Below are positions 6,001-12,000 of a DNA stretch of 22,142 nt, in pieces. The stretch's first letter is position 1, and each line of letters starts with the position of its first letter. The stretch is from a virus, in UHGV virus genome UHGV-0075672; one strand, given 5' to 3'. The position numbers were made by a program.

Positions 6001-9000
6001 CGCTAAAAAGAAAGAGTTAGGCCTGTCGCAGGAATCATTAGCCTATGAATTAGGTGTTACCCAAAGCGCTGTTAATCAGCTAATGGCTGGCATCAACGCC
6101 ATAAATGCCAGCCACGCAGCACAGCTTGCTAAGATACTGAATGTAAAGGTCGGAGATTTCAGTCCCAGCCTGGCAAAATCTATTGCAGAAATGGCGCTCG
6201 CAATTGAAGAGCCATTAACTCGTGTCCCCGCTTACGAATATCCGTTACTCTCCTGCGTACAAGCTGGTGCATTCTCAATGGATGATATTTCGTACACCGC
6301 AAAAGATGCGATTAAATGGATCTCCACCACCACAAAAGCCAGTGACAGGTCGTTCTGGCTGGAGGTCAAGGGGCATTCAATGACCGCACCGCAGGGTGGT
6401 AAACCCAGCTTCCCTGAAGGTATGCTGATACTCGTTGACCCTGAACGGGAAATCGAGGATGGCGATTTTTGCGTGGCCCGAATGAACGGCGATGAATTTA
6501 CCTTCAAACGATTCATTCGTGAGAGCGGTAAAGCGTACCTGGAGCCGCTCAACCCACGATTCGACATGATTGAGTGTAACGAAAACTGCCAGTTTGTCGG
6601 AAAGGTCATCAAATCGCAGTGGAATGATGAGACTTTTGATTGAGCTCACAGAGTGATTTGACATCCTTCACGCCTGCAGAATGTGGAGGATGTCAAAAGC
6701 ACGTTGGCATCATCATGCCACGTAAAGAGGATTAGTTATGCTTCAAAAGCTAGACGTCGCAGACAGCGTGCGTCGCGAGCTGTCTCCCCGTACCGCGCGT
6801 AAACACAAAGCTGAGTTCGGCCAGTTCATGACGCCTTCTGGCGTGGCCCGTTTTATGGCCTCCTTGTTTCCACCGAGCACAATGAAAACTTGCCGTCTAC
6901 TGGACGCAGGCGCTGGTGTAGGCGCACTGTCTTGCGCCTTCCTCGACCGTTGGCTGGTTGGCGAGTTTGGCTTTGAGTCTGTCGAGGCAACAGCCTACGA
7001 AATCGACAAAAAGCTGTGTGGTCACCTTGCGAAGCACTTAACCGGGTACAGGAGAGTGACGCCCCGCATCATCGAAGGGGATTATATTGAGCTGGCAACC
7101 GCCGAAGGTCTACAGGATCGAGGTTATACCCATGCAATACTTAATCCGCCTTACAAGAAGATCAATAGCCAGTCAGCCCACCGGCAGGCTCTTCGCACTG
7201 TCGGTATCGAGACGGTAAATCTGTATTCCGCCTTTGTTGCACTGGCTGTAGGTGAGGTTGCACCTGGCGGGCAGATAGTGGCCATAATCCCACGTAGTTT
7301 CTGCAACGGACCGTATTACCGTCCGTTCCGTAATTTCATACTTGAGCGGGCAGCAATCCGCCATATTCATTTGTTCGAATCACGTAGCAAAGCTTTCAGG
7401 GATGACGATGTGTTGCAGGAAAATATTATCATCCGCCTGGAGCGTGGAGGCCTTCAGGAGGCTGTTACAGTCACAACTTCGACCGATGATAGCTTTTTTG
7501 ACCTGGTCACCTACGAACACCCATTTGACCAAATTGTGTACCCGGACGATTCGGAGCGGTTTATTCATGTGCCGACCACGCACGAGAAAAGCGCCATTGA
7601 GTTATCATCCGCCGTACAATGTTCGCTGGCTGATATTGGCGTGAAGGTATCGACCGGACCAATAGTTGATTTCCGACTGAAAGCTCATTTGCGCAGCATG
7701 CCCGAAGAAGGAACTGTTCCCCTGATCTACCCGAGCCATTTGAGTATGAGTAGCACTGTCTGGCCTGTGGAAGGTTTGAAGAAACCCAACGCAATCATGC
7801 GCAACGACGAGACAGAAAAGTGGCTTTACCCGAACGGTTTTTATTGTGTGGTGCGTCGTTTCTCGTCGAAGGAGGAAAAGCGCCGAGTGGTAGCAAGCGT
7901 CGTTGATCCTGCTACCTTCAGTGAGTATTCAGTGTTGGGATTTGAAAATCACATGAACGTGTTTCATGAGAACAAACATGGGTTACCCGAGGCGCTGGCC
8001 CGTGGCTTGGCCGTGTTCCTGAACACTACCGCAGTGGATAAGTATTTCCGTCGATTCAACGGGCATACACAGGTCAATGCAACCGACCTCAAGATGATTA
8101 AGTACCCAAGCCGTGACACTCTGATAGAGCTTGGCAAGTGGGCTATGCAACAAGAAACTCTCACGCAAGAACATATTGACGCTAAGCTAGGAGCTCTGAC
8201 TGCATGAACAACCAAAATGATTATATTGAGGCCGCTCAGCAAATTATAGCATCCTTAGGCCTGCCCAGAGCGCAGCAGAATGAGCGCTCTGCTTTGTGTT
8301 TGCTGGCACTCCTGAACCTCACACCGGGAAAAGCATGGGCCGACGCGGAAAATCCGCTTGTGGGCATTACACCAATCATGAATTGGGTTCGGGAGCACTA
8401 CGGCAAGGTCTACGCACCCAATACTCGTGAGACATTCCGCCGCCAGTCTATGCATCAGTTCTGCGCTGCTGGAGTAGCCCTCTACAATCCGGACAAGCCC
8501 GATCGCCCAGTGAACAGCCCGAAGGCTGTTTATCAGATCGAACCTGCTGCTCTGTCCATGCTACGCACTTTCGGCAGCCCGGCATGGCACGATAGCCTTG
8601 CAACCTATTTAGCCGAGCGTGAAACGCTGGTTACCCGCTATGCTAAGGAGCGCGAACAGAATCGTATCCCTGTTGAAATTGCTGCGGGCCAGCAAATAAC
8701 CCTCAGTCCCGGCGAGCACAGCGAACTTATCCGTGCCATAATAGAGGACTTCGCCCCACGTTTTGCTCCGGGTAGCGTGCTGGTCTATGCTGGCGACACT
8801 GGCGAAAAGTGGGGCTACTTCGACGCTCCACTGCTGGCCGGACTGGGTGTTGATGTGGATTCACACGGTAAAATGCCGGATGTGGTGCTACATTTCACGG
8901 AAAAAAACTGGCTGCTACTGGTGGAGTCTGTCACCAGTCATGGACCGGTTGATGGGAAGCGGCATGCTGAGCTTGCCAGGCTGTTTGCCGGATCAACAGC

Positions 9001-12000
9001 CGGACTTGTCTATGTGACCGCTTTTCCAAATCGCTCCATCATGGGACGATATCTTGGTGAAATCGCATGGGAAACAGAGGTATGGGTGGCTGATGCACCT
9101 TCTCATCTTATTCACTTCAACGGAGTGCGATTTCTTGGCCCCTACTCTACTGAATGAGTACAGGACCAGATAAATAGCCCGGCCCATGCGCCGGGTTTTT
9201 CTTTGCATATCCCCTCCTGCTATCTGTCCCCTTCAAAAATAAATCACTTTAAAAATCAGTTAAGTAATATTTTCTTGCCCACAATAACCACCAACGGTAT
9301 TTACACAAAAATCACCGCAAGTTATATTTATTTCAAGCCAGAAACATCGCGCCCTTACACAGGGCTACATAAATCAGTCGTACGGCGCGACTTAACCCGC
9401 CGCAAAATGCTCTTTAACAATCTGGAGCTTTACAGCGTCAATGACCTGTTTAGACCCCTACACGTAAACGTGCTGTATCATCGGGTGCGATCCGGTCGAT
9501 GAGAGAGTATCCCCGCGCGAGAGCGAGAACGGCGTGAGAACGGGCAACACTGGCAGGAAGTTGGCGCTGACCAATACAGGGAATGTTTTGGGGTGCTGAG
9601 AGTGCCACCAAAGCGTTGCGTGAAATAGCGATGCCGTCCCAACCCTGTAGCAAAAGTAATGATTGGATACCATAAGACCAATCACAATCATTCTACGATT
9701 ACCTATGCCGCACAAAGTTATTTTTTCAACACAATGTTCAAGTTTTCAACTGACTTCTTTATACTACCGCGTAGGTAGTGCTATCAAATAGACTATGTAA
9801 GCACTTCATGAAGGATGTCGGTCGAACTGAACGGGAAACTTAATGATGCGAAAAATACTCAGGACAACTCTTATCGCTACAATTTTGTTTTCACCAATAG
9901 TACAGGCGGAGTGGTATACAGTAACAGACGACGATTTGTTCTCTGATGGTCACACGGCGCTGATGGTAGGAAAAAAAACATCAAATCCTGAAGAGATTGA
10001 TAATAACATGATTGCTCTTAATTGTACGCCAAGATCCCTAACATTCTCATTAGTCGAAAAGGACATAGAAGAAGAAACATCGGCCCCAATTTATTCATTC
10101 CCAATAGATATGGCAATAAAAATTGACAAAAATAGTATAATAAGGCTCAACGCAACACTTTCAAGAAGAAACTCAATGCTAACACAAGCTATCACTGAAC
10201 GTACTGATACTGAAATGAAGAAAATTAAAATTATACTCAGGCAACTCAGAGATGCTAAACATAGAGTGAGGGTCGGGATTCGACGCCAAGACATCACACG
10301 AGAAGATGCCATGACATATTCTTTCAGCTTTAATGTATTAGGCTCCACTGGTGCTGTTAATAAATTTATCACTGCATGCGGAATAAAGCTGTAAACATGT
10401 TTCTGCCAAAGCAACCTTGACAAATCCACATCGACGGGGATATATTCCACCTCATGGTGCTGAACACACCTTGCAAAGCGGAGACCGCACCCGTCAGTCA
10501 TGCGGCTTTTTTATGTCCATTTTTCAGATATGGTCGGGTAGCGCGTATACCGAAAAACAGCCGAAAGGTTAAGGATACGGGCCGACTTTGCACGGTGTTC
10601 AAGTACCTGGCCGCCCTGCTGAACACAGGGCTATCTGAACAAATGCAAAGGACATAAAATATGAACTCTCAACTCATCCCCGTATTCAACGGCACTATCG
10701 ACAACGAAACTACCCTGTTCTGTAATGCCCGTGATTTACACGCGTTTCTCGAAGTCGGAAAAGACTTTTCCACGTGGATACGAATCCGCATCTCCGAGTA
10801 TGAATTTACAGAAAACCAAGATTTTATTTTGCTCCCCAAAACGGGGGAGCAAAGAAAAGGTAGAGGCGGTCACAACCGCAAGGACTACCACCTCACTCTC
10901 GATACAGCCAAAGAGCTTGCGATGGTTGAACGTAACGAAAAAGGCCGCCAGATACGCCGATACTTCATCGAGTGCGAAAAGAAACTTCGCCAGAGCCTTT
11001 TACCTGCACCAATGAACATCAACTACCCTCTCTCGTGGTTCTCAGATAACCATCCCTACGCCACGATGAACTATGTTGATCGCAAGGTTATCAGCCTTGA
11101 TGCTTCCGTGCTCTTCGATATGCCAAGCCCAACTATGCGCATCCTCAACGAGCTACACAGCAAAGGCTATAACGTTGACGCCGCTGTCGCCGAATTTAAC
11201 GCCTTCAAGCATCTGACGGAAGAAATGCGCCGTAAATTGCTGGATATTTCCCGCACATCGGAAAAGTCTTCCCGCTTTGGTTTCAACGTTAATCTTTAAT
11301 TAACCCCATCCCCGACCACATATCGGGGATTAAATTAAATATCTGGATTAATTAACCGGAGGATTTGTCATGCTCAAACCTCACTACGGAACCGCATTAG
11401 TTTCTCGCGAGGACGTTAAACCCGGCACAGCAATTCTTTACAACGGGCGTTATTACATGGCGTCAGCGAACGTTAATAATGCACTTTACGCACATTCACT
11501 GATTGAAAAAATTCGCATTATCTCAGATGCAATAGAAGTTTACCTGAACAATAAAGGCCAACCGTTAATCTCACCAGCCTGAAAGGAAATATCATGCTCA
11601 ATCAAAAAATAAATATCAATGTAAAAAGCGTCGTAACTCCAGCAGGAACGATAATGGGAGAAGTTTTTATGGATGATAAAATCATCGCCTATTTTGTCGT
11701 CCTGTCTGATGAGGCTATTTCTGTTATTGATACGGAAGGCAATGTTATGTTTATCGCAGAACATCCAGAAGACATCGCATTACAGGCCGCTGCATATTTC
11801 TTCGCTAAGGAGCAGGAGGAAGAATGTAACTGCCCTGTATGTCAGCTTTCCCGACAAATTAATTTAATGCATTAACCGGAATCAGGAGTTCCGCCATGAA
11901 CGCATACCTCACCTGCGACCGCATAGAGGAGCGTCGCTGGATTAATCAGCAAATTCAGGATGAAAAGGATAAATGGATTGATGATCGGGCGCAGGAGCTT

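Follow-up and report, generated by a model that had tools for sequence, protein, structure and literature searches.

The PstI-like Type II restriction-modification (R-M) system EcoGIII has been characterised as methylating and cleaving the sequence CTGCAG, protecting its host against lambda-like phages and affecting the expression of about 1,900 genes (PMC6602927). When cloned, EcoGIII reduces the conjugation of pESBL by up to approximately 10^4-fold, an effect relieved by methylation, and according to the same accounts it does not cleave m6A-modified CTGCAG (PMC4288162, PMC7736820). CTGCAG was found to be 100% methylated in two O111 lysogens, whose methyltransferases are 99-99.7% similar to M.EcoGIII (PMC6602927), and 98.8% methylated in the O145:H28 strain RM13514, in which the system, with a methyltransferase near-identical to M.EcoGIII, resides in a Shiga toxin 2a (Stx2a) prophage; for a sister strain of RM13514 that does not carry the system, the same study reports no CTGCAG methylation (PMC3893438). 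Yin et al. (2015; PMC4587872) remarked on a bsuBI R-M system within the early regulatory region of 'PST2' Stx2a phages. Here we describe a pair of genes (M and R) located within a 22,142-nucleotide stretch of viral DNA (UHGV virus genome UHGV-0075672; the whole stretch is referred to below as the window), for which an earlier sequence-only reading had proposed a Type II R-M pair in the position that lambda reserves for rexAB. We are highly confident that this pair is a copy of EcoGIII, i.e. a Type IIP system, isoschizomeric with PstI and specific for CTGCAG, which is carried as an immunity-region 'moron' by an Eru1-type (TL-2011c/P13374-like) lambdoid prophage of Escherichia coli, with M and R presumably on the transcript of the repressor gene cI. 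The system is already known: it is the named and characterised EcoGIII, and its position in such phages has been noted in print.

The M open reading frame (ORF) extends from position 6738 to 8207 (plus strand) and encodes 489 amino acids, while R (8204-9157, plus strand) encodes 317; the stop codon of M and the start codon of R share four bases (ATGA), and cI lies upstream on the same strand. All of these elements of the sequence-only reading were confirmed. A megablast search of phage records with the segment 5600-9400 gave 98 matching records. Of these, 74 span 80% or more of the query, and the best matches all show at least 95% identity. They include P13374 (the phage of the 2011 O104:H4 outbreak), TL-2011c, VT2phi_272, phi191, Shigella phage Ss-VASD and dozens of Stx2a-converting phages; over 3.8 kb the DNA is approximately 99% identical to P13374, TL-2011c, VT2phi_272 and more than 70 other Stx2a phages. 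Where the relatives are annotated, the two genes are described as a DNA methylase (or BsuBI methylase) and a restriction endonuclease. The EcoGIII system of the O104:H4 Stx2a prophage (P13374/phiStx104; also TL-2011c, VT2phi_272, and 'PST2' and Eru1 phages) is made up of these very genes at the same location, and the identity of about 99% extends from cro through cI, M and R to the terminator.

At the protein level, cI does not differ from its P13374 counterpart at any of 237 residues, M differs at four of 489 (V61L, L239R, H282L and A286T, with the residue of the window given first), and R at one of 317 (residue 233, which is Ala in P13374 and Glu in the window). The M protein of E. coli strain 09-00049 (WP_032274372.1) does not differ from that of the window at any residue. 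The cI-M-R segment was found in 148 of 5,426 complete E. coli genomes, in every case on the chromosome. P13374 further shares with the window two hairpins in the cI-M spacer, the ATGA overlap and the terminator behind R; the leftward flanks differ, since the window carries a gene for a 183-amino-acid secreted protein and an Ant-like gene, in contrast to the Rha-type gene of P13374. The early/replication region named Eru1 is described as containing helicase and primase genes and a Cro related to that of lambda, without homologues of N, cII and cIII (PMC8044961, PMC8951638), and the gene set of the window agrees with this definition. As a separate observation, the prophage of strain 09-00049 contains (at 3033-6563) HsdM/HsdS-like genes of a Type I system (methylase and specificity) together with tRNAs; they occupy the interval from Q to the lysis genes, which in Stx phages is the site of stx. 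This prophage is the closest match to the cassette, so the same cI-M-R arrangement also occurs in a prophage without stx at that position. While these identities, the intactness of the genes and their arrangement come from our own analysis, methylation, cleavage and restriction by the system are taken from the literature.

The assignment of M to the gamma-class N6-adenine methyltransferases, proposed on the basis of its motifs, is well supported. The motifs appear in the order typical for this class, i.e. FGQFMTP (amino acids 27-33, motif X), DAGAGVGAL (56-64, motif I) and NPPY (136-139, motif IV), and the protein matches the PADLOC MTase_II profile PDLC03227 along its full length (1-489 of 494; E 3.9e-248), the phage family phrog_1600 (E 2.9e-302) and, at amino acids 125-220, the Eco57I methylase domain of Pfam. 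We regard M as an allele of M.EcoGIII, with CTGC(m6A)G as its predicted product. The search with hidden Markov models also identified the second protein as a nuclease of the BsuBI/PstI family, again over its full length. R contains an N-terminal winged helix-turn-helix domain (PF17728, BsuBI_PstI_RE_N; amino acids 7-143, profile positions 3-139 of 140, E 1.2e-54) followed by the nuclease domain (PF06616, BsuBI_PstI_RE; 155-307, profile positions 1-153 of 154, E 2.7e-61), both with scores far above the gathering thresholds, and it matches the PADLOC REase_II profile PDLC03420 from end to end (2-316 of 317; E 1.3e-168). It is thus a Type IIP endonuclease and an allele of R.EcoGIII. Two profiles of fused methyltransferase-endonuclease proteins, PDLC03359 (840 amino acids) and phrog_1639 (838 amino acids), match the two ORFs in order, which supports the view that M and R work as a pair. 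Both the CTGCAG specificity and the restriction activity suggested for the pair have been reported for the near-identical EcoGIII proteins (PMC6602927, PMC7736820).

The closest structural relative of R is SdaI (PDB 2ixs; CCTGCAGG), whose crystal-structure chain 2ixs_A aligns with residues 8-315 at 42% identity (E 2.5e-77). Common to the two proteins are a winged helix-turn-helix domain at the N-terminus, a nuclease domain at the C-terminus and the P-D...E-x-V core, but the recognition site of SdaI is 8 bp long and contains CTGCAG within it. The type enzymes BsuBI and PstI have the same two-domain endonuclease over the full profile length and, as here, a gamma-class N6-adenine methyltransferase; they are only distantly related in sequence to the pair from the window which, unlike theirs, is phage-borne and lies within an immunity region. 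Members of PF06616 have been placed in the PD-(D/E)XK superfamily (PMC3424549). In an alignment of the nuclease core comprising the R protein of the window, its plasmid-borne relatives (found by tblastn) and SdaI (eight members, 23-95% identity to the window R), all 25 invariant residues are present in R, among them P225-D226, E241-x-V243, G247-P248, K202 and R253. The canonical position of the catalytic lysine is occupied by valine in this family, and Lys251 of SdaI corresponds to Thr244 here and is not conserved; the catalytic lysine of R is therefore most probably supplied from elsewhere, and the alignment points to the invariant K202 as a candidate for this role.

The position of the pair within the phage genome also corresponds to what the sequence-only reading had claimed. 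The cI gene (5930-6643, plus strand) encodes a LexA-like, self-cleaving repressor of 237 amino acids (HTH_3 plus Peptidase_S24 domains, E 9.5e-29), and is separated from M by 94 bp. Divergent from it lies cro (5631-5870, minus strand, as the longest ORF; Pfam Cro PF09048, E 4.8e-34), which is annotated as such in P13374 and in strain 09-00049; its true start is likely the ATG at 5834, situated behind an AAGGAG Shine-Dalgarno sequence, as in the RefSeq annotation of a relative. A pR-like promoter (TTGACA-17-AATGAT) is located at 5887-5859 on the minus strand, and the cro/cI spacer, in which pRM must lie, forms the OR region (5862-5924) with the operator-like 15-mers ATTACGCACAGTTAT (5862-5876) and ATAACCAAAGGTGAT (5910-5924). 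At its other end the cI-M-R unit is closed by an intrinsic terminator (9176-9207, plus strand), composed of a GC-rich 8-bp stem at 9176-9197 followed by TTTTTCTTT. Its folding energy (-16.2 kcal/mol) and z-score (-3.0 versus shuffled sequences) leave the predicted terminator as a real one; it is the counterpart of the lambda immunity-region terminator and is retained in P13374, while Lyz12581Vzw, a phage of different immunity, has a variant copy. Beyond it lies a candidate OL/pL (9283-9335, plus strand), in which a promoter-like sequence, TTTACA-17-TATATT (9300-9328), overlaps the operator-like ATCACCGCAAGTTAT (9311-9325), and then a nutL-like leader (9408-9595, plus strand) with an exact rrn-type boxA, TGCTCTTTAACAA (9408-9420). 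The pair is thus placed between cI and an immunity-specific segment with promoter-like and operator-like sites, followed by a phi80-like nutL, and the resulting layout OR - cI - M - R - terminator - OL/pL - nutL is that of the rexAB position.

In lambda, rexA and rexB occupy the same slot according to the same logic: they are co-oriented with cI, lie between cI and OL/pL, are closed by a terminator, and provide the lysogen with phage exclusion. The genes themselves show no sequence or mechanistic relation, since Rex acts by abortive infection, in contrast to DNA cleavage with self-protection by methylation in the case of the present pair. In phage phi80 the slot between cI and OL is filled by an unrelated gene, 40A, with the same nutL downstream. 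The segment 9408-9595 is approximately 94% identical to phi80 at the annotated nutL boxA and core, which in phi80 lie directly downstream of the OL operators and pL, and this leader indicates where leftward early transcription begins. In Lyz12581Vzw the segment 9283-9335 is exchanged for an unrelated sequence, with homology returning directly after it, as an immunity-specific OL/pL would be expected to behave. The same phage contains, at its positions 5608-6458, a SocA-family gene and a hypothetical gene between the R terminator and OL, plus a second similar terminator; this slot gathers further morons.

An earlier comparative study states that operators could not be identified for this phage type (PMC4587872). 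The segments 5862-5924 and 9283-9335 may hold CI operators, with a suggested consensus of approximately AT[C/A]AC-N5-GT[T/G]AT. All three matches of the pattern ATMACN5GTKAT in the window are located in the cro/cI spacer or the candidate OL, but the pattern was built from those same three sites and three matches versus 2.2 expected is not significant; we therefore dropped the match count as evidence, and it is the placement alone that is suggestive. As to the nut-like leader, no N-like ORF follows it (9596-10394); the next gene is of low GC content and encodes the 183-amino-acid protein, which has a signal peptide (phrog_19473). A search for a second boxA (nutR) on the cro side found none. As Eru1 phages are described as having no N, antitermination at this conserved nut-like leader might depend on host factors only.

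The R-M pair is not confined to phages. Searches with tblastn revealed it at approximately 94% protein identity on IncP plasmids of Pseudomonas aeruginosa and at approximately 93% on a plasmid of Serratia fonticola, and more distant copies were found on plasmids of many genera; phages, chromosomes and plasmids all show the adjacency of M and R. On one of the IncP plasmids, the KPC plasmid pFAHZU31-KPC of P. aeruginosa, the pair (456-3454; about 94% protein identity) is situated directly downstream of a recombinase-family gene. Such similarity shows that plasmids and enterobacterial phages have exchanged the cassette recently, and the M-R pair is a horizontally mobile unit captured in a phage immunity region. 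The gene order, which the sequence-only reading had regarded as characteristic of the BsuBI/PstI family, is tandem (M-then-R) in five of six plasmid relatives examined and divergent in the sixth. This part of the claim stands for the plasmid relatives but not for PstI itself, the genes of which are divergently transcribed, in contrast to the tandem overlapping pair described here. Within the phages, Lyz12581Vzw, F039 and others form a further group of Stx phages that agree with the window from the middle of cI onwards, through the cassette, but have another N-terminal half of cI and another cro; homology with this second immunity type begins inside cI, which indicates that the C-terminal half of cI and the M-R pair travel together.

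M and R are co-oriented with cI, the spacer between cI and M shows neither a promoter-like site nor a T-run terminator, and a strong terminator stands just before pL. We therefore infer that the two genes are transcribed together with cI on one leftward transcript, which would start from pRM in lysogens and from an establishment promoter on infection. The reports of full CTGCAG methylation in lysogens (PMC6602927, PMC3893438) imply that M is expressed there. The scan of the 94-bp spacer found no sigma-70-like promoter and no T-run terminator; as a candidate for a promoter of M itself, a TTGACA sequence within the first of two spacer hairpins was rejected, having no acceptable -10 sequence on either strand. 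Hairpin 1 (6657-6697, plus strand) is an inverted repeat with a 16-bp stem and a 9-nt loop, with no T-run behind it. Hairpin 2 (6701-6723, plus strand) has a bulged 9-bp stem and a 4-nt loop, ends 14 nt upstream of the M start and sits directly before the AAGAGG Shine-Dalgarno sequence of M. The whole spacer folds at -35.7 kcal/mol (z = -3.5). The stems are identical in the window, P13374 and Lyz12581Vzw, with only the loop differing, but this identity is no evidence of selection, since the cassettes are approximately 99% identical overall.

Nothing speaks against the identification itself, but two observations bear on the simple picture of an active EcoGIII pair read from the repressor transcript. 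One is the stability of the two spacer hairpins, which could attenuate or process the transcript in place of simple read-through from pRM; the other is Glu233 in R, where P13374 and 09-00049 have Ala, the activity of the Glu allele being putative. The hairpins bear on the possibility that M and R are expressed apart from cI, from their own promoter or through RNA processing at the hairpins, and that they constitute a self-contained mobile cassette acting chiefly as an addiction module that stabilises the prophage, rather than a pRM-driven exclusion system. That the pair occurs on the IncP plasmids of P. aeruginosa and in Serratia without cI, and hence functions outside phages, speaks for such independence, as do the location of both conserved hairpins exactly at the cI/M junction and the association of one cassette with two immunity types. 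Post-segregational killing is, moreover, a known effect of Type II R-M systems. We nevertheless consider this explanation unlikely: the spacer offers no detectable sigma-70-like promoter, its TTGACA lying in a hairpin without a usable -10, the hairpins have no T-run, and homology with the second immunity type begins inside cI instead of at the spacer. Addiction and exclusion are, besides, not mutually exclusive. It is also quite improbable, in our estimation, that the hairpin pair (6657-6697 and 6701-6723) is a functional RNA element, acting as a partial attenuator or as a site of RNase III-type processing, which uncouples the level and stability of the M-R mRNA from those of cI; if it were, it would provide timing and dosage control of an R-M system within a repressor operon without any controller protein.

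The residue at position 233 raises another possibility, namely that the cassette has decayed in this phage, leaving M active but effectively an orphan, with a role mainly in epigenetic regulation, and R attenuated or inactivated by Ala233Glu, a change in the loop that connects the PD element of the core with E-x-V. The position within the nuclease core region is the sole difference of R from P13374 (the O104:H4 outbreak phage, from the host lineage of EcoGIII) and from 09-00049, and loss of the endonuclease with retention of the methyltransferase is common in R-M systems. A regulatory role would also be in keeping with the reported change in expression of approximately 1,900 genes upon EcoGIII methylation (PMC6602927). 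Against these points, the R ORF is of full length and retains 25 of 25 alignment-invariant residues, neither the ATGA coupling nor the terminator is damaged, and residue 233 is variable across the family, with Glu also in a homologue from Acinetobacter pittii. Thirteen complete genomes, belonging to several serotypes, keep the same Glu allele intact, including O145:H28 RM13514 and O103:H2 12009. We consider Ala233Glu as probably neutral, judging from the family alignment and the spread of the allele; its inactivating nature appears unlikely, and decay of the cassette as a whole highly improbable. An intact EcoGIII copy, presumably on the cI transcript, remains by far our preferred explanation.

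The Glu233 allele forms part of a patch of eight single-nucleotide polymorphisms within 82 bp (8842-8923) relative to P13374 and strain 09-00049. These polymorphisms match alleles in strains of O145, O103 and O111, and the patch, which includes Ala233Glu, looks like a small recombination tract. The R gene of RM13514 has been described as 100% identical to R of C227-11 (PMC3893438). In our alignment, R of the related O145 phage Lyz12581Vzw differs from that of P13374 at several residues, which constitutes a small mismatch with that statement. A second allelic feature concerns the only CTGCAG of the window (6674-6679), which lies in the loop of hairpin 1. Of 139 genomes, only 9 have exactly the spacer sequence of the window; the loop of most others deviates at 1-3 bases, with CTGAAG at this site in P13374 and Lyz12581Vzw, for which reason its interpretation as a conserved regulatory site was rejected. 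On the improbable reading of the hairpin pair as a functional RNA element, CTGCAG in the loop of this minority allele could additionally make the DNA of the locus sensitive to its own methylase or nuclease. Avoidance of CTGCAG was likewise considered and discarded: one site was found versus 4.9 expected (mononucleotide and maximal-order Markov models), but the depletion ranks only 8th among 64 six-base palindromes and is not meaningful.

In a lysogen, M would methylate the adenine of every CTGCAG in both host and prophage DNA, while R, with its winged-helix domain and SdaI-like variant of the PD-(D/E)XK nuclease fold, would cut the incoming unmethylated DNA of superinfecting phages and conjugative plasmids. 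M is preceded by a good Shine-Dalgarno sequence (AAGAGG, 7 nt from the ATG). That of R (AGGAG) is poorly spaced, at 11 nt from the ATG, and the start codon overlaps the M stop; synthesis of R is therefore probably coupled to that of M and lower. From the ATGA overlap and this spacing we infer that translation of R may depend on ribosomes completing M. On entry into a naive host, the methylase would then appear first and in excess, a plausible means of protection without a controller protein.

Several other features of the window were recorded. A hok/sok-type toxin-antitoxin locus (246-570, minus strand) adjoins the Q antiterminator gene (601-1131); in it a sok antisense RNA (Rfam RF01794, 118 bits; 396-570) overlaps an ORF for a 70-amino-acid Hok-like protein (246-458). 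Three short AT-rich direct repeats (TGAAATWATTT) are present at approximately 5250-5305, in the gap between two ORFs of the minus strand (5319-5600 and 4711-5097), with the helicase and primase genes downstream; these repeats are possible iterons, or the possible origin of replication of the Eru1 module. On the leftward side, a match to the Rfam family sRNA-Xcc1 (10532-10620, plus strand; 65.9 bits, above the gathering score) is located directly upstream of the Ant-like antirepressor ORF (10661-11299). Two RNAs, isrK (73.6 bits) and the C4 antisense RNA (70.6 bits), stand one behind the other at 19659-19846 (plus strand), just upstream of an ORF at 19870-20577; in this leftward region of the prophage they form an antisense-controlled antirepressor arrangement of the P1/P7/P4 type.

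To the published, near-identical copies of EcoGIII the window adds allele-level detail, and it allows the immunity region of such phages to be mapped more clearly, including candidate OR and OL operators, pL and nutL. Phages of this type carry Stx2a in outbreak lineages of high virulence (O104:H4, O103:H25), and they also provide the host with a barrier by restriction and with a methylation mark across its genome. Restriction and methylation of this kind shape which phages and plasmids enter the cell and, according to the literature, alter the expression of host genes.

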